Assembly (NCBI GenBank): GCA_022340825.1
Contig: JAJDNE010000009.1
Span: 10,849-74,848, forward strand
Direction: 5' to 3'
Length of the DNA: 64,000 bases
Source of the DNA: Acidiferrobacterales bacterium
GTDB lineage: Bacteria > Pseudomonadota > Gammaproteobacteria > Acidiferrobacterales > JAJDNE01
Of this stretch, positions 7,304-48,268 are shown piece by piece (within the stretch, counting starts at the first letter, position 1; every line of letters begins with the position of its first letter). The translations under genes and the position numbers were made by a program. Under the pieces are notes generated by a model. It was not told the origin of the DNA and did no database searches. It saw only the letters and a list, made by a program, of their open reading frames with translations.

Positions 7304-7305
7304 GC

Positions 7306-15606: not shown

Positions 15607-15730
15607 CACCCCCGCTCATTTCCAAACCTTTCCGATCGTCCGGATACTGCGATTAGCCGGATACACGCCTCGTTTTGCCATTCCCGCTTGTGTACACTCA
15701 GGCTCTTTCTGGTAATCCCGATATAGTCCC

Positions 15731-17536
15731 ATGCGTGTTCGTCATTATGGCGCCCCACCGAAAAATCGTGACGATTGGAAGACGATCGCCACCCTGTTGC
15801 CTTACCTGTGGGAGTTTCGCGGCCGGGTACTGCTGGCGCTGACACTGCTGGCATTGGCCAAATTCGCCAATGTCGGTATCCCGCTAATTTTAAAAGAAGT
15901 CGTCGACTCCCTGGACAAGCCGCAGGCGCTGTTAACGCTACCGGTGTTCCTGCTGCTGGCGTATGGCGCCCTGCGACTGGCAACCTCGCTTTTCGGTGAA
16001 TTGCGTGACGCTGTGTTCGCCAAAGTAGTTCAACGTTCAATCCGGCGCGTCGCAATCAAGGTATTTCGACACTTGCACGCACTGTCCCTGCGTTTTCACC
16101 TGGAACGACAGACGGGCGGCATGTCGCGCGACATCGAACGCGGCACTGCCGGGATTCGTTTTCTGCTGAACTTCATGCTGTTCAATATCCTGCCGACGAT
16201 CCTGGAAATTGCACTGGTGGCAGCCATCCTGTTAAGCAAATACGCGGCGGTATTCACGCTAGTCATACTGGCGACGCTCGTGGCATACATCGCTTTCACC
16301 CTGATCGTTACCGAGTGGCGCATGGTGTTCCGCCGCAACATGAACGAGATGGACTCAAAGGCCAATACCGCGGCGATTGATAGCCTGCTGAATTACGAAA
16401 CCGTAAAATATTTTGGTAACGAGGAATATGAGACACGGCGTTACGACAGCAGCATGCAGCAGTGGGAAAAGGCGGCGGTGCGAAACCAGACCTCGCTGTC
16501 GTTTCTCAACAGTGGCCAGAGCGCAATCATTGCCATCGGCGTCACTATTCTTATGATGCTGGCCGGTCAGGGCGTGGTCGATGGCGAGATGACGCTGGGT
16601 GACCTGGTCATGATCAACGCCTTCCTGCTGCAGCTGTATATGCCGCTGCATTTCCTCGGGTTTGTTTACCGTGAAATCCGGCACTCACTCGCCGACATGG
16701 AGCGCATGTTTAGCTTGCTGGAAACCAACACGGAGGTTCAGGACAAGCCGGATGCGGCAGACCTGGACATCTCTGCCGGCAGCATTCGATTCGAGCACGT
16801 CAGTTTTGGTTATGACCCGAAACGCCAGATCCTGTACGACGTCGACTTTGAAGTGCCTGCGGGCAACAAGGTTGCGGTGGTGGGTCACAGTGGTGCCGGC
16901 AAATCCACCTTGTCGCGTTTGCTGTTCCGGTTTTACGACGTGACTGGCGGGCGGATCACCATCGACGGCCAGGATATTCGCGATGTCACGCAGAAAAGCG
17001 TACGAGACGCTATAGGAATCGTGCCGCAGGATACGGTGCTGTTTAACGATTCAATCTACTACAACATCGCCTACGGTAATCCGGATGCTACCCGCGAGCA
17101 GATAATACGGGCAGCACAACGGGCGCATATTCATGACTTCGTGGAGACGCTACCCGACGGCTACGACACACTGGTTGGTGAACGTGGACTCAAGCTTTCC
17201 GGTGGCGAGAAACAGCGGGTAGCGATTGCACGCACGCTGCTCAAGGATCCCTGTATTCTGGTTTTCGATGAAGCAACCTCAGCACTGGATTCGACGACGG
17301 AGAAGCGTATTCAGGCAGAACTCGCCGACATTGCACGTCACCATACGACTCTCGTGATCGCACATCGGCTGTCTACCATCATGGATGCGGATCAGATCCT
17401 GGTCATGCATCAGGGCCGGATCATCGAGCGCGGCAGTCACCAGCAATTGATTTCACAAAATAATGTCTATGCCCGGATGTGGGCGATTCAACAACAGGAA
17501 GAAAGCGCCGAAACACCGTTGTCTGCCGGCGCCTAG
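15731..17536 (+). CDS. Atm1/ABCB6-type ABC exporter (fused permease + ATPase)
   Basis: 601 aa, 6-TM N-terminal domain, GHSGAGKST Walker A, LSGGEKQRVAIAR signature, ILVFDEATS Walker B. Confidence 0.85.
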   Translation: MRVRHYGAPPKNRDDWKTIATLLPYLWEFRGRVLLALTLLALAKFANVGIPLILKEVVDSLDKPQALLTLPVFLLLAYGALRLATSLFGELRDAVFAKVVQRSIRRVAIKVFRHLHALSLRFHLERQTGGMSRDIERGTAGIRFLLNFMLFNILPTILEIALVAAILLSKYAAVFTLVILATLVAYIAFTLIVTEWRMVFRRNMNEMDSKANTAAIDSLLNYETVKYFGNEEYETRRYDSSMQQWEKAAVRNQTSLSFLNSGQSAIIAIGVTILMMLAGQGVVDGEMTLGDLVMINAFLLQLYMPLHFLGFVYREIRHSLADMERMFSLLETNTEVQDKPDAADLDISAGSIRFEHVSFGYDPKRQILYDVDFEVPAGNKVAVVGHSGAGKSTLSRLLFRFYDVTGGRITIDGQDIRDVTQKSVRDAIGIVPQDTVLFNDSIYYNIAYGNPDATREQIIRAAQRAHIHDFVETLPDGYDTLVGERGLKLSGGEKQRVAIARTLLKDPCILVFDEATSALDSTTEKRIQAELADIARHHTTLVIAHRLSTIMDADQILVMHQGRIIERGSHQQLISQNNVYARMWAIQQQEESAETPLSAGA

Positions 17537-20366: not shown

Positions 20367-21215
20367 ATGAGCTCAAAACACAAGAAAAGCGGAAAAACAC
20401 TGGCCGACGCGGCCAATATCCACGACCTCTATCAGAATGCCGTGCAGGCACCTGAGGCCGATGTCGAATTCTTCATTGATACGTATAAAAAGCTGCGTGG
20501 CAAGCAAGCCCTGCTAATGCGCGAGGACTTCTGCGGCACTGCCTTGCTCTCGGTCGAGTGGTGTAAAACCGACCCCGCGCGCACTGCCATTGGTATCGAT
20601 CTCGACAAGCCAACGCTGGACTGGGGACAAGAACACAACATAGATGCTGCTGGCGGCGACATGAAGGAACGGGTAACACTGATCGAGGCCAACGTGCTCG
20701 ACAGCAATGCCAGCAAGGTCAAGGCCGACATCACCTGCGCGCTAAATTTCAGCTATAACATTTTCAAAACCCGCGATGCCTTGCGCGAGTATTTCGCTGC
20801 CGCTCACAAGGGTCTGAAAGAAGACGGTCTCTTTATTATCGATATGTTCGGTGGCACAGAAACCATGGATGAACTGGAAGAAGAGCGCGATGTCGATGAT
20901 GAGGACTTCACCTACATCTGGGATCAGGACAAGTTCAATCCCATCACTCATGAAATGCTTTGCTATATCCATTTCAAGTTCTCCGACGGCTCGAAGTTAA
21001 AAAAGGCTTTTACGTATGACTGGCGCCTGTGGACCATGCCCGAGGTGATCGAGCTGATGAAAGAAGCCGGTTTCAGCAAGGTGCGGGTCTTCTGGGAAGA
21101 ATTCGTCGACAGTGATGATGACGATGATGAAATGGAAGGTACCGGTAACTACGAAGAAGTGACCGAGCCGGAGAATCAGGAATCCTGGGTCAACTACATC
21201 GTCGCGGAATATTAG
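20367..21215 (+). CDS. Class I SAM-dependent methyltransferase with acidic C-terminal tail
   Basis: 282 aa, motif-I-like EDFCGTA, Rossmann-like alternation, DSDDDDDEMEG tail. Confidence 0.7.
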   Translation: MSSKHKKSGKTLADAANIHDLYQNAVQAPEADVEFFIDTYKKLRGKQALLMREDFCGTALLSVEWCKTDPARTAIGIDLDKPTLDWGQEHNIDAAGGDMKERVTLIEANVLDSNASKVKADITCALNFSYNIFKTRDALREYFAAAHKGLKEDGLFIIDMFGGTETMDELEEERDVDDEDFTYIWDQDKFNPITHEMLCYIHFKFSDGSKLKKAFTYDWRLWTMPEVIELMKEAGFSKVRVFWEEFVDSDDDDDEMEGTGNYEEVTEPENQESWVNYIVAEY

Positions 21216-21865
21216 GTCGGTCCGTTCTCACGGCCTTGAAACCAGCGCTTCATCAGCCAGTGGGTAGGCAGGAATATTATCAATGGTACCGCCAGCATAA
21301 ACAGGATCAAGTAGACCTGATCCGACATCCAGACCGGTGGTATCGGTCCAACACCATAGACCCAGTTAATATTTTGTTCTACATCACTTGCCAGATAGCT
21401 AACGGGTATGACGAACCAGGCAACCGCTGTCATCCAGACCAGGGCACGAGAGTCATAGCCGACACGATAAACCATCCAGACCAGCATCGGCGCAAGGAAG
21501 ACATGGAACAGGGACAAGGCGCGGACGAATAACGGCATCGACTGTTCAAACATGTAGCTGGTCGCATCGACACCCAACACATCCCGCCCTGAGAAAAGAT
21601 GTAACAGAAAGTCTGTATTCCAGACAATATCAGGGATCAATGTCACCAGCAGTGCCATGCTCGCCGGTAGCGCTGCATTTCTCCAAAGTGCAACCCACGT
21701 CAGGAGCAATGCGATATCACAACCCCAGAGGAAATTCTGCGGTCCGCGGTAGATCCAGTAGATGACAACCAAGATTGCCATAAACAGGGAATAGGTATAA
21801 ACCAGCCAGCGCGGAAAATCGGGTAACGCCGAATTGTCTTTGTATCCCGATGTGACCTGGTTCAT
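21212..21865 (-). CDS. Integral membrane protein, unknown function
   Basis: 217 aa with about 6 hydrophobic helices. Its stop overlaps the convergent methyltransferase stop by 4 nt. Confidence 0.6.
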   Translation of the reverse strand: MNQVTSGYKDNSALPDFPRWLVYTYSLFMAILVVIYWIYRGPQNFLWGCDIALLLTWVALWRNAALPASMALLVTLIPDIVWNTDFLLHLFSGRDVLGVDATSYMFEQSMPLFVRALSLFHVFLAPMLVWMVYRVGYDSRALVWMTAVAWFVIPVSYLASDVEQNINWVYGVGPIPPVWMSDQVYLILFMLAVPLIIFLPTHWLMKRWFQGRENGPT

Positions 21866-21939: not shown

Positions 21940-22515
21940 CTATCGGATTACTACGCGATCGTTTTCAATATCGATGCGTGCCAGTGCCACCACTGGCGCT
22001 TCAATTTCCCGCATGTGATCTCGACCGTGTTCGAACACCTTTTCGATGACGTAGCCAATGCCGCAGAGCGTAGCGCCGCTCTGCTCGACCAGGTCCAGCA
22101 TGGCTTCAGCGGTATCGCCGGTGCCGAGAAAATCATCGATGATCACCACGCGATCATCTGGGGAAAGATATTCGCCTGAGATATGAAGGGTCGCCAGTTC
22201 TCCCTTGGTATGACTGCGCGCGCTGGACTGATAGCAGTCGCCTACCAGTGTCACCGGCCGCTTCTTGCGGGCAAACACCATGGGCACTCCCAGCGCCTGG
22301 GCAGTTGTCAGTGCCGGGGCAATGCCGCTGGTCTCTGCGGTGACCACCTTGTTGACCGACGACGCGCCGCCCTCTAGCAGCAGGCGTGCCAGCTCCTTTC
22401 CGATCCCGGTCATCAGAATGGTGTCTATGCGATGGTTCAGAAAGCTGTCGAGCTTGACGATGCCATTTCCAAGATAGACTGCTTCCGCCAGTATGCGTTG
22501 ATCCAGTTCGTGCAT
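21940..22515 (-). CDS. xpt: Xanthine phosphoribosyltransferase
   Basis: 191 aa, collinear by eye with B. subtilis-type Xpt (KLDSFLNHRID, VTAETSGIAPA, VVIIDDFLGTGDT PRPP loop). Confidence 0.88.
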   Translation of the reverse strand: MHELDQRILAEAVYLGNGIVKLDSFLNHRIDTILMTGIGKELARLLLEGGASSVNKVVTAETSGIAPALTTAQALGVPMVFARKKRPVTLVGDCYQSSARSHTKGELATLHISGEYLSPDDRVVIIDDFLGTGDTAEAMLDLVEQSGATLCGIGYVIEKVFEHGRDHMREIEAPVVALARIDIENDRVVIR

Positions 22516-22535
22516 ACCGACGCGACTGCCGATCT

Positions 22536-23198
22536 CTATGCCGTGCCGAGGTGCTGGCTGAACCAGTCACACGCCAGGCTCGCAGCCTGATCCAGTGTGC
22601 CGGGCTCTTCGAACAGATGCGTGGCACCGGGTACAATTTCCAGCTGCCGGGTACATTGCAAAGCTGCGTAGGCACTCTGGTTCAGCTCGATGACAACGTC
22701 ATCGTAACCGCCAACAATCAGCAGTGTCGGCGCCTGCACCCGGGCCAGGTCTGTCTCGCCGGCCATATCGGGTCGACCTCCCCGGGAGACCACGGCACCA
22801 ATCCTGTCACCGAGTTCGGCTGCTGCCTTCAATGCGGCCGCGGCACCGGTGCTGGCACCAAAATAACCGATAGCCATATTCGCCAGGGCCTCCTGTGTCG
22901 AAAGCCAATGGGTGACTTCGATCAAACGATTCGTCAGCCGCGGGATATCAAACCGGTTTTCATACACCCGGTCCTCATCTTCGGTCAGCAGATCAAACAG
23001 CAGGGTGGCGATGCCGCGAGCACGAATGAGCTCGGCCACGTAATTGTTGCGCCGACTGTGTCGACTGCTGCCGCTGCCGTGGGCAAAAACGACAATGGCT
23101 TTCGCAGATGGTGGAATACCCAGCAATCCCATGTGCACTCGCCCGCCAATGGGAATCTCGATATCGGTGACACCGGAAGCAGCCATTGCGTCGCTCAT
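22536..23198 (-). CDS. Dienelactone-hydrolase-like alpha/beta hydrolase
   Basis: 220 aa, VVFAHGSGSSRHS, nucleophile elbow GASTG, GATHLF histidine. Overlaps the upstream PRTase stop by 4 nt. Confidence 0.8.
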   Translation of the reverse strand: MSDAMAASGVTDIEIPIGGRVHMGLLGIPPSAKAIVVFAHGSGSSRHSRRNNYVAELIRARGIATLLFDLLTEDEDRVYENRFDIPRLTNRLIEVTHWLSTQEALANMAIGYFGASTGAAAALKAAAELGDRIGAVVSRGGRPDMAGETDLARVQAPTLLIVGGYDDVVIELNQSAYAALQCTRQLEIVPGATHLFEEPGTLDQAASLACDWFSQHLGTA

Positions 23199-23881
23199 GA
23201 TTGTTTCAAAAATCCACGATCGTCGAGTTGCTTCATCATCTCAAGCACTTCCTGATCACTAACCTGGCTGAAGTTGTCATAGTAGGCACCGACTGCACCC
23301 ATGTAGTGGGCATCGATCGACAAGGCAACGACATCATCAACCTCTTGCGCCAGCAATGATGCCGTGTCTTCTGGTACGACCGGGATGGCGACGACAACAT
23401 GGGCTGCTTTACGGGCCCGCATGTCCTTGACCGCGGCGCGCATGGTCAGGCCCGTGGCGATGCCATCATCCACGAGAATCGCGGTTTTGCCCTCGATTAC
23501 CGCCGGCGACCTGCCGGCCAGGTACAGTTCTCGTCGGCGTCGGGATTCCTCGCGCTCCTCCGCCACGCGTTGCTCGAACCACTCCTTGTCCGCGCGCGCC
23601 AGTTCGCGCTCGTTGCAGACAGTCTCGCCGGTCTCGGCGACGGCACAGATGGCATATTCCGGATTGTATGGATGACCGATTTTGCGCGGGATCACCAGGT
23701 CCAGTGGCATGTTAAGCGCACGTGCAAGCTCAAGCCCTAGTGGTACGCCGCCTCGCGGAAGTGGATAGACAACGCAGTCCGTCCCCTTGTATTTTTCGGC
23801 TACCAGTTCGGCAAGCTGTTTCCCGGCGTCGATGCGGTCATGAAAGCGCATGGGTGTACCCGGCTCAAATCGCGGTGGCAT
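23195..23881 (-). CDS. Orphan phosphoribosyltransferase-family protein (paralog 1)
   Basis: 228 aa, FHDRIDAGKQLA, PRGGVPLG, AILVDDGIATGLT PRPP-binding loop. Start could be the internal MRFHDR at 23851. Confidence 0.8.
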   Translation of the reverse strand: MPPRFEPGTPMRFHDRIDAGKQLAELVAEKYKGTDCVVYPLPRGGVPLGLELARALNMPLDLVIPRKIGHPYNPEYAICAVAETGETVCNERELARADKEWFEQRVAEEREESRRRRELYLAGRSPAVIEGKTAILVDDGIATGLTMRAAVKDMRARKAAHVVVAIPVVPEDTASLLAQEVDDVVALSIDAHYMGAVGAYYDNFSQVSDQEVLEMMKQLDDRGFLKQS

Positions 23882-23895
23882 CCCGAACGATCGCG

Positions 23896-24249
23896 CTAAT
23901 CATATTGCGCATGGGTCTTGACGTCGCCACGCTGCTTACGCACGTAATCCTGCAACTGGCGTTTGGCTGCCTCGAACGAATCACGAATGGAAACATAAAT
24001 GTCTTCGTGTGCCGAATGCTTGGCCGGATCACGCTTTACCACAATCTCGGCACCTGGCGCGGTGATATCAATGCTAATGTGGTACAGCTTGCCCTTATGC
24101 TGATGGCCATGCGGCACCTCGATCACAACACGACATGACATGATGTGATCACAGAATTGATCCAGTTTTTCAGCATGTTCGCGGATCGATGTTTCAATGG
24201 CATCAGACTGATCCATATTTCGCCAGGTGATTTGTAATGGTAACTTCAT
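23896..24249 (-). CDS. hpf: Ribosome hibernation factor, HPF/RaiA (S30AE) family, short form
   Basis: 117 aa with the beta-alpha-beta-beta-beta-alpha pattern: LQITWRNMDQSDAIETSIREHAEKL...VVIE...ISIDITAPGAEIVV...DIYVSIRDSFEAAKRQLQDY. Confidence 0.75.
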   Translation of the reverse strand: MKLPLQITWRNMDQSDAIETSIREHAEKLDQFCDHIMSCRVVIEVPHGHQHKGKLYHISIDITAPGAEIVVKRDPAKHSAHEDIYVSIRDSFEAAKRQLQDYVRKQRGDVKTHAQYD

Positions 24250-24270
24250 CCCGCCCTCCTGTTGTGGGTA

Positions 24271-24510
24271 CTATTTTTCATAGCAGGAACCTTCACGTAT
24301 CCAGACGCCGCGTTCTTCACAGCGCAACAACTCGTTTCCGCTACAGACATAGGCGCCGATATCAAAGGTTTCGTTGTTAAAAAAGCAAACGCCTTCCTCG
24401 AGCTCGACATCCAGATCAAGTTCATCACTGCTGCTTTCATCAAAAATCGGGGAATTGCGTAATTCGGGATCGGGTGCGCCGACATCGGGGGCCTTACCTA
24501 ATTCAGACAT
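24271..24510 (-). CDS. Small acidic protein with a C-terminal 4-Cys module (C-x13-C-x7-C-x11-C), unknown function
   Basis: 79 aa, AAGGAAAC SD-like sequence 8 nt upstream. First gene after the predicted FNR-type promoter. The alternative-frame ORF 24246..24485 looks non-coding. Confidence 0.5.
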   Translation of the reverse strand: MSELGKAPDVGAPDPELRNSPIFDESSSDELDLDVELEEGVCFFNNETFDIGAYVCSGNELLRCEERGVWIREGSCYEK

Positions 24511-24577
24511 ATATTGTTTCCTTGTACTGTTTATTTAGCTAACAAATACATTACACCGCCTGTTAGCGGTGGCCGCA

Positions 24578-24591
24578 TTGATCTGGCTCAA
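24578..24591 (-). promoter_or_regulatory. FNR/CRP-family box 1 (TTGATctggCTCAA), 9/10 to TTGAT-N4-ATCAA
   Basis: Centre lies 74.5 bp upstream of the ATG at 24510. With the centre set at -41.5, TGTAAT (minus strand, 24550-24555) falls exactly at -12..-7. Confidence 0.5.
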
Positions 24592-24605
24592 GACTTGATG
24601 AAAGG

Positions 24606-25181
24606 CTAGCGGGAAATGGAAACCGTGGAATATCGGTCGACTTGCACATCCGTAGACCAGAAATCCACTGGCAGGCCGGCTTTACGCTTTAGCTGCTGGA
24701 GAAATTCACGCGCATCAGGCAGGGATTCCCATACCGATGGCAGGAAGGTACCACGCTGCATACCCAGCGACAGGATCAGGCCGTCTACCCCCGGCTGCAA
24801 TTGCTCAATCAGGTCCGCCTCGGAATGAAAGCTCATCGGGGTCGCGGGCGTCAGGACCGAAATATGGATATCGAGCTGCGGCAGATCCCTGGCGGTAACA
24901 GGAGCAAACCTGGGATCGCGGAAGGCCGCACTGCGGGCATTGCTGCTGACATCCACCACCAGTGGCTGCCGTGCCTCCAGCGAGCCAATACAACCACGCA
25001 AGTTTCCCGATTGGTTGAGTGTCACAAAACTGGCGCCGTTTTCACCGAGCACGCCGTCGTAGTGGATCGCACTGATTCTGGCGCGCTCGCCATGAAGGCC
25101 CCGTTCGATAGATTCTCGCGCAAGCCATAACAGCGTTTCCCGCTGCGCCGGGTTAAAATCGAATTTTTCAGTGGAAGACAT
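24606..25181 (-). CDS. AmmeMemoRadiSam system protein A (AMMECR1 domain)
   Basis: LRGCIGSLEA AMMECR1 signature. Start at MSSTEKFD (25181) preferred over the ORF-track start at 25244, which would overlap the upstream gene by 77 nt. Confidence 0.85.
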   Translation of the reverse strand: MSSTEKFDFNPAQRETLLWLARESIERGLHGERARISAIHYDGVLGENGASFVTLNQSGNLRGCIGSLEARQPLVVDVSSNARSAAFRDPRFAPVTARDLPQLDIHISVLTPATPMSFHSEADLIEQLQPGVDGLILSLGMQRGTFLPSVWESLPDAREFLQQLKRKAGLPVDFWSTDVQVDRYSTVSISR

Positions 25182-25980
25182 ACGCTCCGTAGCCAACGAC
25201 CTGGTTCCGCGGCCCGGCAGTATCCCCGGAGTTCCGCAGATCAATCGTCTTTCCCTTCAGTCCGCGCTTGCGGGCCTGTAGCAGCAGACCGCTCACCGGC
25301 GTACGCCCGCAGGCCTGATCAAAATGAATTTCGTCATAGGCAAGGTGTTCGATTGCCAGGGACGTCGCGCTGTCCATTTGCCGGGCTGTCTGATAGTCGT
25401 GGTAATGGCTTAGATCCGAACTGATAACGATCAGGGTTTCCGGTCCACCCCACAGTCGCTCCAGTACTTCTGCCACTTCTTCTGCGCTGGCATCCCCGAC
25501 AACCAGTGGTACCAGCTGGAAATCCGCTAATACCGACTGCAAGAATGGCAGATGCACTTCGAGGCTGTGTTCCAGGGTATGGGCGTCATCGAACACGCGC
25601 ACTTGTGGCAAACCGCGGATTTGTTCCACCGCCTCACGATCTATCTCGATCTTCCCCAGCGGTGTGGCAAAGGCGTCACTCGCTGGTAATGCCAACCCAT
25701 GCACCGGGACCCGATGGGCCGGGCCGAGCAGGACTACCCGGGAGATGACGGAACTTGCTTGTCGGAGACTGGCATAGGCACTGGCGGCGACCGGCCCCGA
25801 ATAAATGTACCCGGCATGCGGTGCAATGATGGCCTTTGGTGGGCTATCGGAAGCGATTGCCGGATCGACGTCGGCAAGCATTTGCTCGACCATGGAACGC
25901 AGCTCCTGCGCATTCGCAGGGTAAAACATGCCCGCAACAGCAGGTGATCTGATCTGAGACAAAGCGGCACTCCCGAACAT
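25168..25980 (-). CDS. AmmeMemoRadiSam system protein B (Memo/MEMO1-like)
   Basis: 270 aa, AGMFYPANAQEL, IIAPHAGYIYSGPVAA, SSDLSHYH motifs typical of the Memo family. Confidence 0.85.
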   Translation of the reverse strand: MFGSAALSQIRSPAVAGMFYPANAQELRSMVEQMLADVDPAIASDSPPKAIIAPHAGYIYSGPVAASAYASLRQASSVISRVVLLGPAHRVPVHGLALPASDAFATPLGKIEIDREAVEQIRGLPQVRVFDDAHTLEHSLEVHLPFLQSVLADFQLVPLVVGDASAEEVAEVLERLWGGPETLIVISSDLSHYHDYQTARQMDSATSLAIEHLAYDEIHFDQACGRTPVSGLLLQARKRGLKGKTIDLRNSGDTAGPRNQVVGYGAYVFH

Positions 25981-26103
25981 CGTGTATCTCTATATAAATG
26001 ATGCGGGCGGCACCGGATTTCAAGCCTTTATTGATTTGCCGACGGAATGTCCGCATTTACTGTCTATCTGCGCACAAAACCGGCACTGACCGGCCTGAAA
26101 AAC

Positions 26104-27201
26104 ATGACTGAATTTATCACCGACACGGTCGTCAAAACGAAATACTGGCACACGCTTAGTGACGGCCGTGTCCAGTGCGACCTCTGCCCGCGCGAATGCA
26201 AAATGCACGATGGCCAGCAAGGCCTCTGTTATGTACGCGAGAACCGGGGTGGCGAGGTGGTGCTGACCACCTACGGGCGTTCCAGCGGTTTCTGCATCGA
26301 TCCGATTGAAAAGAAACCGTTGAATCATTTCCTGCCCGGCACACCTGTACTGTCTTTCGGCACTGCCGGTTGCAACCTGGCTTGCAAGTTTTGCCAGAAC
26401 TGGGACATCAGTAAATCGCGCGAAATGGATACGTTGGCTGATGACGCCTCACCACAAACCATCGCCCGGGCAGCCAAGGCCCATGGTGCACGCAGTGTCG
26501 CCTACACCTATAACGATCCGACCATCTTTCACGAATATGCCATCGATGTCGCCCAGGCCTGTCGTGACGAAGGCATCAAGAATGTCGCCGTCAGTGCCGG
26601 CTACGTATTGCCGGAACCTCGTGCGGAATTTTACGCACACATGGATGCGGCCAATATTGATCTCAAAGGCTTCACCGATGAGTTCTACTTCAAGCTTACC
26701 GGCGCGCACTTGCAGCCGGTACTGGATACACTGAAATACATCAAACACGAGACCAGCGTCTGGCTCGAGACCACCACCCTGCTGATACCGGGCAAAAACG
26801 ATTCGGACGATGAACTGAACGAGATGACTCAGTGGGTAGTCGAGAACCTGGGGCCAGACATGCCGATGCACTTCAGTGCGTTTCATCCGGACTGGAAAAT
26901 GATGGATATCCCGCCGACCCCCGCAGCGACACTCACCCGGGCGCGTGACATCGCCATGAAAAATGGTGTGCGCTATGCCTATGTCGGCAATGTCCACGAT
27001 CCAGCGGCGGACAGTACCTGGTGTCATCAGTGTGGCGAAAAACTGATTGGCCGTGACTGGTATGTGTTGAGCGACTGGAATATCACTGCCGATGGCAAGT
27101 GCAAAAACTGTCAGGCACCGGTCGCCGGCGTATTCGAGGAAAAACCCGGTGACTGGGGTGCGCGCCGGCAACCCGTGCGCCTGCACAATTTCGCCGCTTG
27201 A
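26104..27201 (+). CDS. AmmeMemoRadiSam system radical SAM enzyme
   Basis: GCNLACKFCQNW (CxxxCxxC) radical-SAM cluster, N-terminal CDLCPRECK and C-terminal CHQC...CKNC Cys pairs. Start at MTEFITD (26104) preferred over 26047. Confidence 0.85.
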   Translation: MTEFITDTVVKTKYWHTLSDGRVQCDLCPRECKMHDGQQGLCYVRENRGGEVVLTTYGRSSGFCIDPIEKKPLNHFLPGTPVLSFGTAGCNLACKFCQNWDISKSREMDTLADDASPQTIARAAKAHGARSVAYTYNDPTIFHEYAIDVAQACRDEGIKNVAVSAGYVLPEPRAEFYAHMDAANIDLKGFTDEFYFKLTGAHLQPVLDTLKYIKHETSVWLETTTLLIPGKNDSDDELNEMTQWVVENLGPDMPMHFSAFHPDWKMMDIPPTPAATLTRARDIAMKNGVRYAYVGNVHDPAADSTWCHQCGEKLIGRDWYVLSDWNITADGKCKNCQAPVAGVFEEKPGDWGARRQPVRLHNFAA

Positions 27202-27211
27202 TGCTGGTCAA
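27198..27211 (+). promoter_or_regulatory. FNR/CRP-family box 2 (TTGATgctgGTCAA), 9/10 to consensus
   Basis: Overlaps the radical-SAM stop codon. Centre is exactly 41.5 bp upstream of the ATG at 27246. Extended -10-like TGcTACATA at 27231-27239. Confidence 0.45.
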
Positions 27212-27245
27212 TAAGCCCTAGACCCGCAAGTGCTACATATCCCCT

Positions 27246-27932
27246 ATGTGGCACCCTCCCGCAAACGTCACCGAAGACCCGGCACTGCACAATCGCGGCC
27301 CGGTATTTACCGATCGAATCGACGCCGGTAAGCAGCTGGCAGCACTGTTATCTGGCCGACATAAAAGCGATGCCATTGTCTGCGCCATCCCCGCGGGCGG
27401 CGTACCCGTCGGAATTACCGTTGCACGGGAACTGGCACTCACATTCGATGTGCTGGTGGTTAGCAAAATGACCCTGCCCTGGAATTCAGAGGCAGGCTTC
27501 GGCGCCATGACAACCGATGGCACCAGCATGCTCAATCGGGCGCTGATCGACGCGATCGGCCTGGATAAGAACGCGATCAACGACGCCACTGATTCAACTC
27601 GAGCCAAAGTCCTGCGTCGGGAAAAACACTACCGGGAGATCATTGGCAAACAGGACATGACCAACCGGGAGGTCATCCTTGTTGATGATGGACTTGCCTC
27701 CGGCTTTACCCTGCGTGTCGCCATTGAATCCGCCAGATCGCAAAAGGCGAAACATGTTGTCGTTGCTGTCCCCACCGGCCATAGTGCGTCAGTCGAGTTG
27801 ATCGCCGCGGAGTGTGACTGGCTGGTTTGCGCCAACGTGCGCGAAGGTATGCGTTTCGCGGTGGCCGACGCCTATCAGCAATGGACGGATGTCAGCGAGG
27901 GTGAAGTCGTGCAATTACTGGAACAGGTGTAA
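27246..27932 (+). CDS. Orphan phosphoribosyltransferase-family protein (paralog 2)
   Basis: 228 aa, FTDRIDAGKQLA, PAGGVPVG, VILVDDGLASGFT PRPP loop; collinear with paralog 1. Confidence 0.8.
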   Translation: MWHPPANVTEDPALHNRGPVFTDRIDAGKQLAALLSGRHKSDAIVCAIPAGGVPVGITVARELALTFDVLVVSKMTLPWNSEAGFGAMTTDGTSMLNRALIDAIGLDKNAINDATDSTRAKVLRREKHYREIIGKQDMTNREVILVDDGLASGFTLRVAIESARSQKAKHVVVAVPTGHSASVELIAAECDWLVCANVREGMRFAVADAYQQWTDVSEGEVVQLLEQV

Positions 27933-28360
27933 TGACGCAATCCGCTGCTTACTGGGAACATTTTGACCACGAAGCCGACATCGGTGTACGCGGTGTTGGC
28001 CCGACACTTGCCCAGGCGTTTGAACAGGCTGCACTGGCCATGAGCGCGGTAATCACACCGCTGGAAAATATCGATACCAGGCAGGCTATCACGATCGAGT
28101 GCACTGGCGATGATCCGGAGGTGCTTCTGGTAGATTGGTTGAACGCGCTGGTGTATGAAATGGCGACGCGCAATATGCTGTTCGGCCGATATGCCGTTCA
28201 GATAGAAAGCGGCACACTAACTGCCACCGCCTGGGGTGAACCCGTTGACGTGCAAAAACACCAGCCCGCCGTTGAAATCAAGGGCGCTACCTATACTGCC
28301 CTGCGTGTCACTAAAACAGGAGACGGTTCGTGGATCGCCGAAACCGTGGTCGACGTCTGA
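27932..28360 (+). CDS. Archease (RtcB activator/chaperone family)
   Basis: 142 aa, WEHFDHEADIGVRGVG (HxAD motif), C-terminal IKGATYTAL. ATG overlaps the PRTase TAA (taATGa). Confidence 0.85.
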   Translation: MTQSAAYWEHFDHEADIGVRGVGPTLAQAFEQAALAMSAVITPLENIDTRQAITIECTGDDPEVLLVDWLNALVYEMATRNMLFGRYAVQIESGTLTATAWGEPVDVQKHQPAVEIKGATYTALRVTKTGDGSWIAETVVDV

Positions 28361-28372
28361 CAGGAAACGAAT

Positions 28373-29803
<1,431 letters not shown>

Positions 29804-29820
29804 CTCGACGTGTGTGATAT

Positions 29821-29834
29821 CTGATTGATATCAA
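29821..29834 (+). promoter_or_regulatory. FNR/CRP-family box 3 (CTGATtgatATCAA), 9/10 to consensus
   Basis: Centre lies 66.5 bp upstream of the nrdJ ATG. TATAGT at 29858-29863 falls at -11..-6 if the centre is -41.5. Embedded in the 12-bp palindrome ATTGATATCAAT (29824-29835), with a TGATATC direct repeat at 29815 and 29826. Confidence 0.5.
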
Positions 29835-29893
29835 TACTTATTAATACCTGTTTCCACTATAGTTATATCGACTGAGTACTTGCTGGCTAATCC

Positions 29894-31723
29894 ATGTCCG
29901 AATCATTTTTCAGCACCGATATCGCGCGTCATATCTGGGAAACCAAATATCGTTTTCTCTCGGACACTGAAACATCAGACCAGTCTATCGATGACACCTG
30001 GCGGCGCATCGCCAGATCGCTGGCAGCCGTCGAGCCCGATGACCAGGCACAGTGGGAACAACAGTTTTACGACATCCTGCGCGAGTTCAGATTCCTGCCC
30101 GCCGGCAGAATCCAGGCCGGCGCCGGCACCGGGCGCGACGTCACGCTGTTTAATTGTTTTGTCATGGGTAACATCGAAGACTCCATGGACGGCATCTTCG
30201 ATGCGTTAAAGGAAGGCGCACTGACCATGCAACAAGGTGGCGGTGTTGGCTATGACTTTTCTACCCTGCGTCCCCATGGCGCGCCTGCCCGCCGAACCGG
30301 TTCGGTCGCCTCGGGACCGGTTTCCTTCATGAAAATCTGGGACAGTATGTGCGCCACCCTGCTCTCCACCGGCGCGCGCCGTGGCGCGATGATGGCAACA
30401 TTGCGTTGCGATCACCCCGATATTGAAGCCTTTATCGATGCCAAGCGCGACCAGCATTCACTACGAAATTTCAACCTGTCAGTTCAAATCAGCGACGCAT
30501 TTATGAAGGCCGTGCGCGACGACAGCACCTGGCAACTGGTGTTTCCGGCGGATGCAATTGCTGACACAGATAGCGAGTTGGTAATGCGGACCTGGCCAGG
30601 CCGGGACAATGAAATCGAATGCCGGGTACTGCACGAGCTGCCAGCGCGCGAGCTCTGGTTGAAGTTAATGCAAGCGACCTACGACTATGCCGAACCGGGT
30701 GTGTTGTTCGTCGATCACATTAACAAAACGAACAACCTGTACTACCGCGAACAGATTTCAGCCAGCAATCCTTGCGGGGAGGTGCCGCTACCACCCTACG
30801 GTGCCTGCAATCTCGGCTCGATCAATCTTACGCGTTTTGTTGGCAATCCTTTCACTGATAAAGCCGCAATCGATACCGAAGCGTTGATCTCCACGGTCGC
30901 TACCGCAGTGCGCCTGATGGACAACGTGATTAGCGCTTCGAAATTTCCGCTGGCGTCCCAGCGCGAACAGGCAGAAGGATCCCGTCGTATTGGCCTAGGG
31001 GTAACCGGTCTCGGTGATGCCTTGATCATGCTGGGCTTGCGTTATGACTCGGCGGAAGCGCGGCAGGCAGCTGCCAACATCATGCAAGCGATTACCCACA
31101 GTGCCTATCGCGCCTCAATTGCACTCACAGAAGAACGTGGACCGTTCCCGTTTTATGAGCGCGATGCTTACCTGCAAAGCGCATTCATCAAAACCCTGCC
31201 CGACGACATTCAGCAGGGTATCCGCGACCACGGCATCCGTAACAGCCATCTGCTTGCTATAGCGCCGACCGGTACAATAAGCCTGCTGGCCAACAACATT
31301 TCCAGCGGAATTGAGCCAGTCTACGACTTTGAATACACCCGGCGGGTACGTGAAAGCAATGGCAATGACGTTGAATACCGCCTGACCAGCTATGCCCTGC
31401 GGCAACGACAAGCGATTGGCGAGGGTGAAGAATTGACTGATGCATTTGTCCGGGCCTGGGATGTCGACCCGGTCGCCCACCTGGACATGCAGGCAGCTAT
31501 CCAGCCATATGTCGACAGCGCCATTTCCAAGACCATCAACGTTCCCGAAAATTTTCCGTTCGAGCAATTTAAGTCGTTGTATGAACAGGCGTTTGATCGC
31601 GGCCTGAAAGGCTGTACCACGTTTCGCCCCAACCCGGTTACCGGGTCCGTTCTGCAAACCGGCGTGACCCATATTCACCGGGCACGCCATCATTGCTGTG
31701 ACATCGATCGCGAAATTGATTGA
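29894..31723 (+). CDS. nrdJ: Class II (adenosylcobalamin-dependent) ribonucleotide reductase
   Basis: 609 aa, WETKYRF N-terminus, active-site SNPCGEVPLPPYGACNLGS, C-terminal Cys pair. Confidence 0.88.
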   Translation: MSESFFSTDIARHIWETKYRFLSDTETSDQSIDDTWRRIARSLAAVEPDDQAQWEQQFYDILREFRFLPAGRIQAGAGTGRDVTLFNCFVMGNIEDSMDGIFDALKEGALTMQQGGGVGYDFSTLRPHGAPARRTGSVASGPVSFMKIWDSMCATLLSTGARRGAMMATLRCDHPDIEAFIDAKRDQHSLRNFNLSVQISDAFMKAVRDDSTWQLVFPADAIADTDSELVMRTWPGRDNEIECRVLHELPARELWLKLMQATYDYAEPGVLFVDHINKTNNLYYREQISASNPCGEVPLPPYGACNLGSINLTRFVGNPFTDKAAIDTEALISTVATAVRLMDNVISASKFPLASQREQAEGSRRIGLGVTGLGDALIMLGLRYDSAEARQAAANIMQAITHSAYRASIALTEERGPFPFYERDAYLQSAFIKTLPDDIQQGIRDHGIRNSHLLAIAPTGTISLLANNISSGIEPVYDFEYTRRVRESNGNDVEYRLTSYALRQRQAIGEGEELTDAFVRAWDVDPVAHLDMQAAIQPYVDSAISKTINVPENFPFEQFKSLYEQAFDRGLKGCTTFRPNPVTGSVLQTGVTHIHRARHHCCDIDREID

Positions 31724-31803: not shown

Positions 31804-32283
31804 ATGCACGTGGCAGCTAGAACGGCCAAGCTCGACAAAGTCATTCCTGATCTCAAGGTCACCACCACCGGTGACAAGTCATTCAAACTCTCTGAACTTC
31901 GCGGCCAAAAGGTCGTTCTTTATTTTTATCCAAAAGACAACACCCCCGGTTGTACAACGGAAGGGCAGGATTTTCGCAATGCCCATGGAAAATTCAAACG
32001 CAAAAATGCAGTCGTGCTGGGCATATCCCGCGACAGCATCAAGTCACACGACAATTTCAAGGCCAAACAGAAGTTTCCCTTCGACCTGATATCGGACCCC
32101 GATGAAAAACTGTGTAACGCGTTCGACGTCATCAAAGAGAAAAATATGTATGGTAAAAAAGTAATGGGTATCGAACGGAGTACATTTATAATCGATGAAA
32201 AAGGCATACTTAGAAAAGAGTTCCGCAAGGTCAAAGTCCCCGGACACGTCGAAGCCGTCCTCGAAGCACTCAAAGAGCTTTAG
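31804..32283 (+). CDS. bcp: Thiol peroxidase / peroxiredoxin Bcp
   Basis: 159 aa, VVLYFYPKDNTPGCTTE peroxidatic Cys motif. Confidence 0.9.
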   Translation: MHVAARTAKLDKVIPDLKVTTTGDKSFKLSELRGQKVVLYFYPKDNTPGCTTEGQDFRNAHGKFKRKNAVVLGISRDSIKSHDNFKAKQKFPFDLISDPDEKLCNAFDVIKEKNMYGKKVMGIERSTFIIDEKGILRKEFRKVKVPGHVEAVLEALKEL

Positions 32284-32302: not shown

Positions 32303-33691
32303 ATGTCATCCGATACAAAGAAGATTTTCGTGCTCGACACCAATGTGTTGATGCATGATCCCACCGCCCTATTCCGCTTTGAAGAACACGACATCATCCT
32401 GCCGATGGTGGTCCTGGAAGAGCTTGATCGAGGCAAGAAAGGCCTGACCGAGGTGGCCCGCAATGTCCGCCAGGTAAGCCGCTACCTTGACGAAATGGTG
32501 GAAAAGGTTAACGGCGAGATCGACAAGGGCATCCCCCTGCCGACTACCGAGGGCAGGGAAGCTGGCCGCCTGTATTTTCACCTGGATCCGGTTCAGCACC
32601 CGATGCCGCATGGCCTGCATGCCGACACCGCGGACAACTCGTTACTCGGCATCACGCTGGATCTCAGCCGTCGCCATCCGGACAGTGACGTCGCGCTGGT
32701 CACCAAGGACATCAACCTGCGAATCAAGGCACGTGCCCTGGGTATACTTGCCGAGGACTACACCAGCGATCAGGCGCTGGAAGACAGCGATCTGCTGTAC
32801 ACCGGTGCCGATGAATTTGGCAGCGACTTCTGGGAGACACAGGGCCAGATTGAAGCGTGGACCAGCAACGAAGGTCGCGCGGGCTACCGCCTTACCGGCA
32901 TCAATCCGCAAGAATGGTACCCAAACCAGTTTATCCAGGTCTCCGGCGACAAACCGTTTGAGGCGACGGTTCGCGCCATTGAGGACGATGCTGTCGTACT
33001 GGAAACAGTGCGCGACTACAGCAGCGAAGCCGGTGCTGTCTGGGGCATTCAGGCACGCAATCGCGAACAAAACTTCGCGCTAAACCTGTTAATGGACCCG
33101 GAAATCGATTTCATTACCTTGCTGGGACAAGCAGGTACCGGCAAAACGCTGCTGACCCTCGCCGCCGCGCTGACCCAGACACTGGACGATCAACGCTATA
33201 GCGAGATTATTTTTACCCGCATTACCGTGCCGGTAGGCGAGGACATCGGCTTCCTGCCCGGCACCGAAGAAGAGAAGATGAATCCCTGGATGGGTGCACT
33301 GAATGACAACCTGGAAGTGTTACACGAAACAGCAGAGGAACACGGTGAGTGGGGAAAGGCTGCCACCAAGGATTTTCTCTACAGCAAGATCCGGGTGAAG
33401 TCGCTCAATTTCATGCGCGGTCGTACGTTCCTGCGCAAATTCCTCATTATCGATGAAGCGCAGAATCTGAGTCCACATCAACTGAAAACCCTGATTACAC
33501 GTGCTGGCCCGGGCAGCAAGGTAATTTGTCTCGGTAACCTGACGCAGATTGATACCCCCTACCTTACTGAAACCACGTCCGGACTAACCTATGTTGTGGA
33601 TCGCTTCAAGCACTGGCAACATAGTGGGCACATCACACTACAACGAGGAGAACGTTCGCGGCTGGCCGACTTCGCCAGCGGAATACTCTAA
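32303..33691 (+). CDS. PIN-domain + PhoH-like ATPase (YlaK family)
   Basis: MSSDTKKIFVLDTNVLMHDP (PIN), GQAGTGKT Walker A, LIIDEAQN Walker B. ATG at 32303 preferred over 32195, which overlaps bcp. Confidence 0.85.
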   Translation: MSSDTKKIFVLDTNVLMHDPTALFRFEEHDIILPMVVLEELDRGKKGLTEVARNVRQVSRYLDEMVEKVNGEIDKGIPLPTTEGREAGRLYFHLDPVQHPMPHGLHADTADNSLLGITLDLSRRHPDSDVALVTKDINLRIKARALGILAEDYTSDQALEDSDLLYTGADEFGSDFWETQGQIEAWTSNEGRAGYRLTGINPQEWYPNQFIQVSGDKPFEATVRAIEDDAVVLETVRDYSSEAGAVWGIQARNREQNFALNLLMDPEIDFITLLGQAGTGKTLLTLAAALTQTLDDQRYSEIIFTRITVPVGEDIGFLPGTEEEKMNPWMGALNDNLEVLHETAEEHGEWGKAATKDFLYSKIRVKSLNFMRGRTFLRKFLIIDEAQNLSPHQLKTLITRAGPGSKVICLGNLTQIDTPYLTETTSGLTYVVDRFKHWQHSGHITLQRGERSRLADFASGIL

Positions 33692-33693
33692 CC

Positions 33694-34413
33694 ATGCGTC
33701 GTGTCATGATACTCAATGCCAAGGGCGGTGCCGGCAAGACCATGCTGGCCACCAACCTTGCCAGCTATCTCACCAGCAATCACAAATCCGTGGCGATCGC
33801 CGACATGGACCCACAGGGCTCCAGTCTGGCGTGGCTGGCGGCACGACCTGAAGACCGTCGACCTATCCAGGGGATTGACGGCATCGACGGGCCGGTGCGA
33901 GCGCCCAAGCATACCGATTTTCTGATCATCGACACGCCTGCTTCGGTGTATGGCAAAGACCTGACAGCACTCGTTCGACGGGCTGAAACCATTCTGATAC
34001 CGGTACAACCGTCGGCGACGGACATGCGCGCCGCTGCCAAGTTCATCGATGAGTTACTGGATGTCGGCAAAATCTCGCGCAAGGAAGTCAAGCTGGCGCT
34101 AGTTGCCAATCGAATGCGGGAAGCCGGCCGGACTGCAGGATTTATGGAACGGCTATTGCAATCCGTTCATATCCCGTTTGCGACTCAAAGCACAGAAATC
34201 AACGAAACACTGGAGAACTTCCTGAAGGGAATGAAAATTCCACTGGTGGCGGAAATACATGATAGCGAGAGCTACCTGCTTGCAGACAGCCAGGGCTTGG
34301 GTATTTTTGAGCTGGACAGCTCCGATGCAGAGCGCGATGTCGAAACCTGGAAGCCGTTAATCCAATGGCTGGAAAGTCGACGCAGCATCCCGCGCATCCG
34401 CAAAAAATCCTGA
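33694..34413 (+). CDS. Orphan ParA/MinD-family P-loop ATPase
   Basis: VMILNAKGGAGKTMLATNLA deviant Walker A. No parB-like partner is visible. Starts 3 nt after the PhoH-like stop. Confidence 0.8.
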   Translation: MRRVMILNAKGGAGKTMLATNLASYLTSNHKSVAIADMDPQGSSLAWLAARPEDRRPIQGIDGIDGPVRAPKHTDFLIIDTPASVYGKDLTALVRRAETILIPVQPSATDMRAAAKFIDELLDVGKISRKEVKLALVANRMREAGRTAGFMERLLQSVHIPFATQSTEINETLENFLKGMKIPLVAEIHDSESYLLADSQGLGIFELDSSDAERDVETWKPLIQWLESRRSIPRIRKKS

Positions 34414-48192: not shown

Positions 48193-48268
48193 TGGTGGGC
48201 CGTGTAGGACTTGAACCTACGACCAATGGATTAAAAGTCCACTGCTCTACCAACTGAGCTAACGGCCC
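48193..48268 (-). tRNA. tRNA-Lys (anticodon UUU)
   Basis: Manual cloverleaf, 76 nt: GGGCCGT/ACGGCCC acceptor, GCTC/GAGC D stem, anticodon loop CTTTTAA, GTAGG/CCTAC T stem with TTCAAGT loop, encoded CCA. Confidence 0.93.

Follow-up and report, generated by a model that had tools for sequence, protein, structure and literature searches.

Why a bacterium should keep genes for ribosome hibernation, RNA ligation, nucleobase salvage and oxygen-independent deoxynucleotide synthesis next to one another is the question raised by a gene island of about 12 kb in Acidiferrobacterales bacterium (assembly GCA_022340825.1). The island lies in a stretch of 64,000 nucleotides of contig JAJDNE010000009.1 (forward-strand positions 10,849 to 74,848), which is called the window here and to which all coordinates refer. 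A previous sequence-only reading, made without database searches, had described the cluster as a self-contained module for stasis, low-oxygen survival and resuscitation. The present analysis leads to a modified answer: the locus is likely a conserved, plastic island in which most operons are activated, at low oxygen or in response to nitric oxide (NO), by a regulator of the FNR/Anr class encoded elsewhere.

Families were assigned with profile hidden Markov models (Pfam and NCBIfam/TIGR models) on the open reading frames (ORFs) of the window. The ORF listing and the profiles placed all twelve previously named genes in the families given to them at the outset, and the conserved part of the cluster was found to run past NrdJ through Bcp/PrxQ and PhoH2 to position 33691. 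From left to right the island comprises:

21946-21931: terminator-like hairpin after xpt (terminator scan)
21940-22515, minus strand: xpt, xanthine phosphoribosyltransferase, last gene of operon A (TIGR01744, 205 bits against a cutoff of 164)
22536-23198, minus strand: alpha/beta serine hydrolase resembling dienelactone hydrolase (DLH; PF01738, 27.5 bits against a gathering cutoff (GA) of 21; best Pfam match Abhydrolase_11)
23195-23851 (ORF to 23881), minus strand: PRT1, TT1426-type orphan type I phosphoribosyltransferase (PRTase; matched by Pribosyltran only)
23896-24249, minus strand: HPF/RaiA-type short ribosome hibernation factor, 117 amino acids (aa) (PF02482, 62 bits)
24271-24510, minus strand: Cys4, acidic small protein of 79 aa, first gene of operon A (frame checked against an overlapping ORF)
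24606-25181 (ORF to 25244; start by gene caller), minus strand: AMMECR1, AmmeMemoRadiSam protein A (TIGR04335, 195 bits against 99)
25168-25893 (ORF to 25980; start by gene caller), minus strand: Memo, AmmeMemoRadiSam protein B (TIGR04336, 270 bits against 26)
26047-27201, plus strand: AmmeMemoRadiSam radical SAM enzyme (rSAM), divergent from Memo (TIGR04337, 656 bits against 220)
27246-27932, plus strand: PRT2, paralog of PRT1, first gene of operon B (Pribosyltran-type profile)
27932-28360, plus strand: archease (PF01951, 139 bits, model positions 1-136 of 136)
28373-29803, plus strand: RtcB RNA ligase of the archaeal/eukaryal, archease-dependent type (PF01139, 568 bits, model positions 1-426 of 426)
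29894-31723, plus strand: NrdJ, class II ribonucleotide reductase (RNR), predicted to depend on adenosylcobalamin (TIGR02504, 600.9 against 399.95 bits)
31810-32283, plus strand: Bcp/PrxQ thiol peroxidase (PF00578, NF053650), which follows NrdJ in relatives too
32303-33691, plus strand: PhoH2, a PIN RNase joined to a PhoH RNA helicase (PF13638 and PF02562, NF053827), which follows Bcp in relatives too

The start of PRT1 is probably the one chosen by the gene caller, at 23851. The first ATG of the hydrolase gene shares 4 nt with the PRT1 stop, and the archease start overlaps the stop of PRT2. The class II assignment of NrdJ is based on its equivalog-level TIGR02504 score.

For comparison, one genome per GTDB species was scanned with a PRTase alignment, which yielded 80 loci, and synteny in these loci (given L numbers below) was read by tblastn with the window proteins. 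The order DLH-PRT1 and AMMECR1-Memo, divergent from rSAM-PRT2-archease-RtcB and followed further on by NrdJ-Bcp-PhoH2, was recovered in 16 of the 80 at 50-75% identity, and the same gene order was present in L089, L090, L091, L095, L096 and L097. Island synteny at 50-90% amino-acid identity extends to at least 23 loci from Acidiferrobacterales, Sulfuricaulis, "Muproteobacteria" and SG8_45-like genomes; the juxtaposition is therefore not a chance arrangement, which would have been expected to be absent from related genomes. The 16 syntenic loci come from Sulfuricaulis, Acidiferrobacteraceae/-ales, 'Ca. Muproteobacteria' and unclassified Gammaproteobacteria, and two of them carry the labels Methylomirabilis and Bacteroidota, which may reflect mis-binning. 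In close relatives whose PRT1 is 91% and 79% identical to that of the window the entire island is kept, Cys4 and HPF included.

Gene content within this frame varies. Islands of the Sulfuricaulis type lack HPF, Cys4 and xpt and add (i) Hsp20; (ii) a DUF6763 gene divergent from a second phosphoribosyl pyrophosphate (PRPP) synthetase, Prs; (iii) a 342-aa uncharacterised gene after DLH; and (iv) between RtcB and NrdJ, DUF72, PolX, an isochorismatase-family (PncA-like) protein and nicotinate PRTase (PncB). Hsp20, Prs, PncAB, PolX and DUF72 are thus found in islands of relatives and are absent from that of the window. In L095 and L096 a boxed operon (boxes are described below) reads PilZ-HPF(186 aa)-DUF2934-Hsp20, its HPF being 55% identical to the window HPF in the shared domain, and the L091 island additionally holds a hemerythrin gene. 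The position of xpt is shared in L088, L089 and L091. L088 carries the operon Cys4-PRT1-DLH-xpt-DUF6763 behind the same box as in the window, between flanks unrelated to the island, which speaks for the autonomy of operon A.

Two further arrangements were seen among the relatives. PncA-like and nicotinate PRTase genes stand directly upstream of NrdJ in a co-directional array (L014 positions 14391-16390, with equivalents in L023, L026 and L051) that mirrors the nrdZ / Rv0571c / pncB2 block of Mycobacterium tuberculosis. L097 (1702-7383) has a radical SAM gene, a CMAS-like methyltransferase, an FAD oxidoreductase and archease-RtcB, and is devoid of PRT2; the adjacency of AmmeMemoRadiSam and archease-RtcB hence outlives loss of PRT2.

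What would tie most units of the island together is found in their promoters. The palindrome TTGA-N6-TCAA, common to FNR, Anr, Dnr, NnrR and FixK, occurs in exact form at only three sites in the window (294, 24578 and 27198). Two of these, together with the best one-mismatch site of the window, precede island operons:

24578-24591, minus strand: box A, FNR-type, TTGAGCCAGATCAA, upstream of Cys4; 24 nt, then TAATGT (-10)
27198-27211, plus strand: box B, FNR-type, TTGATGCTGGTCAA, overlapping the rSAM stop; 22 nt, TACATA (-10), 6 nt, then the PRT2 ATG
29821-29834, plus strand: box C, FNR-type with one mismatch, CTGATTGATATCAA, upstream of NrdJ; 23 nt, then TATAGT (-10)

All three promoters share one layout, namely box, 22-24 nt and a TAnnnT hexamer. 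Given this distance between box and -10 hexamer, the boxes fall near -41.5, the class II position for FNR-type activators. As judged from predicted transcription starts and operon limits, three of the four transcription units would accordingly be boxed with class II geometry: Cys4-HPF-PRT1-hydrolase-Xpt (unit A), PRT2-archease-RtcB (unit B) and NrdJ-Bcp-PhoH2 (unit C). The third exact site (294-307, TTGATCTCGGTCAA) falls where an unannotated ORF of 128 aa (290-676) begins, for which Pfam gave no match. Between box A and the -10 predicted for operon A, 35 nt past the stop codon of AMMECR1, a terminator-like hairpin (CACCGCTAACAGGCGGTG, 24554-24571, minus strand) was noticed, which may act at once as terminator of the Memo-AMMECR1 transcript and as promoter spacer.

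The boxes are conserved along with the genes. Box A has counterparts upstream of Cys4 in L088, L089 and L091, and in nine of ten Sulfuricaulis-type loci a box stands upstream of PRT1. Of 17 loci, 15 have a box before PRT2, its centre 40-44 nt ahead of the ATG. With few exceptions among the loci, the -10 element of the PRT2 promoter ends 6-7 nt short of the ATG, and a Shine-Dalgarno sequence is missing; for these two reasons the PRT2-archease-RtcB mRNA is predicted to be leaderless and to be made from a class II promoter. Box C is kept upstream of NrdJ in L089, where it is identical, and in L091. Other boxed units in relatives are the divergent DUF6763/Prs pair (six of six loci), Hsp20, PilZ-HPF-Hsp20, DLH-u347 and hemerythrin (L091). 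In L091 an inserted gene parts archease from PRT2, and a separate box precedes archease. Over 23 island loci (351 kb) 50 exact boxes were counted, compared with about 2-3 expected from composition, and 32 of the 50 fell into the 11% of sequence that is intergenic (binomial p = 8e-19, a value that is not an exact probability as the loci are related).

A number of observations weigh against control of the whole island by such a regulator. The supporting loci include many close relatives, so that the counts given above overstate their independence. The NrdJ box is limited to the window's own sublineage; elsewhere NrdJ ends a long co-directional array. No FNR-type box was found in the Memo/rSAM divergent region of the window or its relatives. 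HPF scored 62 bits with PF02482 (GA 23.7) and matched the HPF structure 9T0Z in the Protein Data Bank (PDB) at 1e-28, yet stayed below the NCBIfam equivalog cutoff (TIGR00741, 30.4 against 40.9 bits); its binding to ribosomes is predicted from the family. PRT1 orthologs in Marinobacterium and Ralstonia stand alone, outside any island. PRT2-type PRTases outside the clade have no recurrent neighbour (54 non-island genomes, 144 Pfam families among 106 neighbours), and the link between RtcB and PRTase could be inherited synteny instead of a functional necessity. A tblastn search of the 64-kb window with an approximate E. coli FNR query detected no FNR/CRP-family regulator. Finally, the sequence of the box cannot tell an oxygen-sensing FNR/Anr from an NO-sensing Dnr/NnrR or a FixK-type protein, and low-oxygen control of the island is a prediction from the boxes, as are the identity of the regulator and its signal.

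Universal linkage of PRT2 with RtcB or with HPF was ruled out by the varied PRT2 neighbours in the 54 non-island genomes, and universal linkage of AmmeMemoRadiSam with RtcB by loci of Ideonella and Sinorhizobium that contain amrB/amrS alone, without RtcB. As PRT2 neighbours vary and AmmeMemoRadiSam occurs without RtcB outside the clade, the full arrangement is clade-specific. The neighbourhood of RtcB, archease, PRTase and HPF put forward by the sequence-only reading is hence conserved within the clade, though HPF is missing from the Sulfuricaulis-type islands, but not beyond it, where PRT2 has no recurrent partner.

Some of these points suit the view that the island is inherited synteny with no common function, housekeeping genes having stayed neighbours in one clade while the palindromes are incidental or unrelated. 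Full synteny indeed stops at the limits of one gammaproteobacterial clade; in Desulfobacterota, Methanobacteria and other groups the surroundings of PRT2 are not conserved; and AmmeMemoRadiSam stands alone in Ideonella and Sinorhizobium. We nonetheless judge this view very unlikely. The boxes are about 20-fold over-represented, concentrated in promoters and held at a fixed distance; HPF, Cys4, PRT1 and DLH relocate in L095 and L096 yet remain behind a box; archease-RtcB of L091, once parted from PRT2, gains a new one; and the PRTase family recurs in hypoxia-type loci of two other phyla or classes. The synteny, the boxes on three of four units and the recurrence of the PRTase-hydrolase family in actinobacterial and betaproteobacterial hypoxia-type loci point the same way, towards a predicted role at low oxygen or in stasis.

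Which signal would be sensed is a separate matter. The same architecture might answer to a signal other than oxygen, through an NO-responsive (Dnr/NnrR-type) or other redox- or energy-sensing CRP/FNR factor, and would then form a nitrosative- or denitrification-stress or energy-starvation regulon. The breadth of the box consensus allows this, the window encodes no regulator that would fix the sensor, and the peroxiredoxin of the island and the boxed hemerythrin of L091 would fit. However, the sole family member found nearby, an FNR homolog 3 kb from PRT2 in L080, has the FNR-type four-cysteine motif (C-X2-C-X5-C...C) of a [4Fe-4S] cluster, and class II RNR, Hsp20 and HPF are classic members of low-oxygen regulons in Burkholderia and M. 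tuberculosis. A non-oxygen signal therefore appears unlikely to us, if worth keeping in mind. Of the original description, the stasis or low-oxygen character thus gains from the conserved boxes on three of four units, which predict such control, but the signal could be NO. The term 'self-contained' does not hold, given that the window lacks an FNR/CRP regulator and gene content differs between relatives, and a role in resuscitation was not supported.

The RNA ligase differs from the familiar bacterial one. It matched RtcB of Pyrococcus horikoshii (PH1602, 1e-152) and human RTCB (1e-124) and fell far short of the threshold set for NF007153, the E. coli-type model; this long archaeal/eukaryal type fits the pairing with archease, and a full-length RtcB adjoining archease is what defines an RtcB-archease system. 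Neither rtcA nor rtcR occurs anywhere in the 64-kb window, and archease and a PRTase are the operon partners, as had been read from the letters. The E. coli rtcBA operon, which is induced when stress harms the translation apparatus, also encodes an RtcB RNA ligase. It differs in having RtcA, RtcR and a sigma-54 promoter, in the type of its RtcB and in the partners of the ligase, and the promoter here is of FNR type and predicted to give a leaderless mRNA. In a six-frame translation of the window neither the GAFTGA nor the Walker motif that marks a sigma-54 activator turned up, no intergenic sigma-54 (-24/-12) consensus lay upstream of the RtcB operon, and no convincing sigma-54 promoter was found in the 64 kb. 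With activator motif and -24/-12 site both missing, sigma-54/RtcR control was ruled out.

Repair operons built around RtcB occur in known conflict settings, and an oxygen-independent defence role, in which RtcB-archease, the PRTase and PIN-PhoH2 counter RNA cleavage by toxins or phages, was considered as well. PhoH2 has a PIN RNase domain and PRT2 of L091 a faint PRTase-CE match, which would suit it. PADLOC, however, gave no match for PRT1, PRT2, the hydrolase, HPF, Cys4, archease or RtcB and only marginal P-loop matches for PhoH2; toxin-antitoxin or mobile-element signatures were absent at the island; and GC content is even over its whole length. Metabolic partners (Prs, PncAB, Xpt, NrdJ) are present, and the boxes are of FNR type. 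A conflict function therefore strikes us as highly improbable, and membership of the island in a PADLOC-listed defence system was ruled out, there being no meaningful match.

The two orphan PRTases are paralogs with 35% identity. Compared with characterised PRTases (APRT, HGPRT, UPRT, OPRT, PyrR and Prs), their best NCBIfam scores were 19-35 bits against cutoffs of 113-484, whereas xpt passes its equivalog cutoff and is an ordinary xanthine PRTase. The closest structure to PRT1 is TT1426 of Thermus thermophilus (PDB 1WD5, 1e-36), a structural-genomics protein with type I PRTase fold and intact PRPP motif that has no assigned substrate; that of the hydrolase is the Anabaena 'dienelactone hydrolase' 2O2G (4e-59), likewise from structural genomics. 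Both are direct homologs without described physiological context. The possibility that PRTases and hydrolase might prove to be well-characterised nucleotide-metabolism enzymes was thus not borne out, the hydrolase too matching no characterised equivalog.

A 450-aa protein on a Rhodococcus plasmid fuses counterparts of the two, its N-terminal half being 39% identical to PRT1 and its C-terminal half 58% identical to the hydrolase, with GASTG, DD and ATHLF conserved in the latter. PRT1 and the hydrolase are, by this comparison, a split form of the actinobacterial fusion; for the predicted Rv0571c-type pairing the Rhodococcus protein served as stand-in for Rv0571c. Its neighbours encode universal stress protein (USP), Hsp20, CBS-domain and wax-ester-synthase proteins, a setting that appears DosR-regulon-like by analogy. 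In Burkholderia sp. JP2-270 a homolog of the PRTase is paired with an erythromycin-esterase-family protein in a locus with BON, BCAM0308-family, FtsH, USP and Hsp20 genes and five FNR-type boxes. The set of PRTase partners (Prs, Xpt, nicotinate PRTase and two esterase families) points to PRPP-dependent chemistry coupled to ester hydrolysis as their putative role. A more speculative idea, to which we assign little likelihood, is that the TT1426/Rv0571c-type PRTases and the esterase, possibly with AmmeMemoRadiSam, serve anoxia-induced RNA or ribosome maintenance together with archease-RtcB and not base salvage, for example by ribosyl or nucleotidyl modification of damaged RNA ends or by supply of the nucleotide cofactor of the ligase; the leaderless mRNA would be translatable by post-hibernation 70S ribosomes.

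Besides the E. coli rtcBA operon, three known systems resemble the island. The closest is the lxa locus of Burkholderia cenocepacia, a low-oxygen-activated set of 50 genes with TGA-N6-TCA at 17 intergenic points (Sass et al. 2013, PMC3721108). It holds a class II RNR and an alpha-crystallin; that it overlaps with the DosR regulon was remarked on by the authors; and its gene table includes USPs and a ribokinase, besides enzymes of polyhydroxyalkanoate synthesis and fermentation (PMC3721108). Both loci are proteobacterial, chromosomal multi-operon clusters with Anr/Fnr-like palindromes and a class II RNR; Hsp20/alpha-crystallin is shared with relatives of the window island, and a TT1426-type PRTase occurs in the JP2-270 locus, which is lxa-like. 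On the other hand, lxa is without RtcB/archease, HPF, the PRTase-DLH pair and AmmeMemoRadiSam and encodes its own Anr-related regulators, of which the window has none. Induction of lxa was measured, whereas that of the window island is predicted.

The DosR (DevR) regulon of M. tuberculosis includes Rv0079 (RafH), Rv0570 (a B12-dependent RNR), Rv0571c (a PRTase), Rv2630 and Rv2631 (RtcB) (PMC5309233), which bears out the parallels that the sequence-only reading had drawn. The families in common are HPF-like Rv0079/RafH, the B12 RNR Rv0570, the PRTase Rv0571c and RtcB Rv2631, to which relatives of the island add nicotinate PRTase (pncB2), Hsp20 (hspX) and an aeRF1-like factor (Rv2629/Balon). The mycobacterial genes lie in nine scattered blocks (among them Rv0079-81, Rv0569-74c and Rv2623-31) and here in one locus; PRTase and hydrolase form one protein in actinobacteria and two in the window; and a NarL-type response regulator with Dev boxes acts there as opposed to an FNR-type palindrome here. 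The annotation of the window island and its flanks shows no regulator of NarL type. Because the motif found is of FNR type, the island is an analog of the DosR regulon and not a member of it.

Hibernation factors (Balon, RaiA) have been described as neighbours of RaiA, Hsp20 and RtcB in stress operons (Helena-Bueno et al. 2024, PMC10901736). The island resembles these in placing RtcB, the ligase for rRNA repair, in one neighbourhood with a hibernation factor, and in L012 archease-RtcB adjoins a gene of the baeRF family. It differs in having a short HPF and no Balon, and FNR-type control, the PRTase and NrdJ are absent from that account. In L012 (12180-13233) archease-RtcB is followed by the baeRF_family12/Host_attach (aeRF1-like) gene and COQ7, with Hsp20, DnaJ and MerR_2 near by, an arrangement that recalls Rv2629 (Balon)-Rv2630-Rv2631. 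The literature searched held no report of FNR-type control of rtcB or of an RtcB-archease-PRTase operon, and nothing informative on the function of AmmeMemoRadiSam or the biochemistry of Rv0571c.

AmmeMemoRadiSam and Cys4 are the least understood parts of the island. All three AmmeMemoRadiSam NCBIfam models score above cutoff at this one locus, and the divergent region between Memo and rSAM is conserved as a sigma-70-like promoter region. The trio had been counted as part of the module; it is present and its adjacency is conserved, but with no box and with occurrences elsewhere without RtcB its membership is unproven, and it probably stands outside the predicted regulon. The '4-Cys acidic peptide' of the sequence-only reading exists as ORF 24271-24510, but of its cysteines the family (153 representatives) conserves just two, C42 and C64, and a 4-Cys metal site was ruled out on that ground. 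An overlapping frame of equal length (24246-24485), tried as the Cys-rich peptide, proved spurious. Cys4 is 76% identical to its L088 homolog and has a single, weak Pfam match (DUF1496). Its motifs are an N-terminal VGAPDPExxNSPI, which looks like a short linear interaction motif, and a C-terminal CxFN...C...W domain. This domain recurs 14 times in the 1962-aa protein P0318 and several times in other large proteins.

Elsewhere in the window are genes for Sox proteins, phosphoribulokinase, DsrE and arginine biosynthesis, besides tolB and ruvB. This content marks the window as chromosome of a sulfur-oxidising autotroph; 'Acidithiobacillales bacterium SG8_45' is the closest named relative, and the host is a sulfur-oxidising sediment gammaproteobacterium. 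An Rfam scan of the window for riboswitches and RNA elements returned only a tRNA (48196-48268) and no riboswitch. On the left the island is flanked by hyp282 and hyp217 (20367-21865), two conserved genes annotated without function that show synteny with L089 and L091. For hyp282 there were two weak matches, one to a methyltransferase and one to PADLOC 'mad2'; hyp217 had none. On the right, PhoH2 is followed by ParA (33694-34413) and, up to 36050, by a 134-aa gene without assigned family, DUF202 and YjdM. GC drops to 0.425 at 34-36 kb, and the stretch looks like an insertion at the island's right edge. In L031 PhoH2 is directly followed by a u146-LysR pair, unlike in the window. L001 (11128-14581), from another metagenome assembly of the same organism, has RtcB split into products of 426 and 72 aa and NrdJ shortened to 519 aa, either by assembly error or by strain-level pseudogenisation. 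Two fusions were also recorded in the window. The first, an unusual one of 1007 aa (3220-6243, minus strand), joins a 2-oxoacid dehydrogenase E2 (two lipoyl domains, E3-binding domain and acyltransferase) to a complete dihydrolipoamide dehydrogenase E3 and adjoins the E1 alpha and beta genes (6323-8313); the second, of 687 aa (60042-62105, plus strand), joins a Ser/Thr protein kinase to a WD40 beta-propeller.

If activation by an FNR/Anr-class regulator is correct, the island would work as follows. The active regulator would bind the boxes, whose centres lie some 41-43 nt upstream of where transcription is predicted to start, and switch on three units. From unit A, HPF would park and protect ribosomes, while bases would be salvaged or recycled in PRPP-dependent reactions by Xpt and by the PRT1/hydrolase pair, which is a split enzyme of the Rv0571c type. 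From the leaderless unit B, RtcB and archease would reseal RNA (tRNA or rRNA) with 2',3'-cyclic-phosphate/3'-phosphate and 5'-OH ends. From unit C, NrdJ would provide deoxynucleotides independently of oxygen, Bcp would remove peroxide and PhoH2 would turn over RNA. AmmeMemoRadiSam, at the centre of the island, would be expressed from its own sigma-70-like promoters.

Were this so, a single FNR-controlled locus would hold essentially the toolkit that is scattered over the M. tuberculosis DosR regulon, namely hibernation factor, RtcB/archease, B12-dependent RNR, PRTase-hydrolase, nicotinate salvage, Hsp20 and aeRF1-like factor. This would speak for such a gene set being a convergent, general answer to anoxic stasis and not a mycobacterial peculiarity. 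As far as the searched literature shows, it would also be the first time that FNR-type control, as opposed to control by RtcR/sigma-54 or DosR, is seen for a bacterial RtcB that depends on archease. The Rv0571c/TT1426 PRTases, their esterase partner and, less certainly, AmmeMemoRadiSam would gain an inducing condition, a promoter and partners. The main value of the finding is that families without an assigned function are placed in a defined and testable regulatory context.

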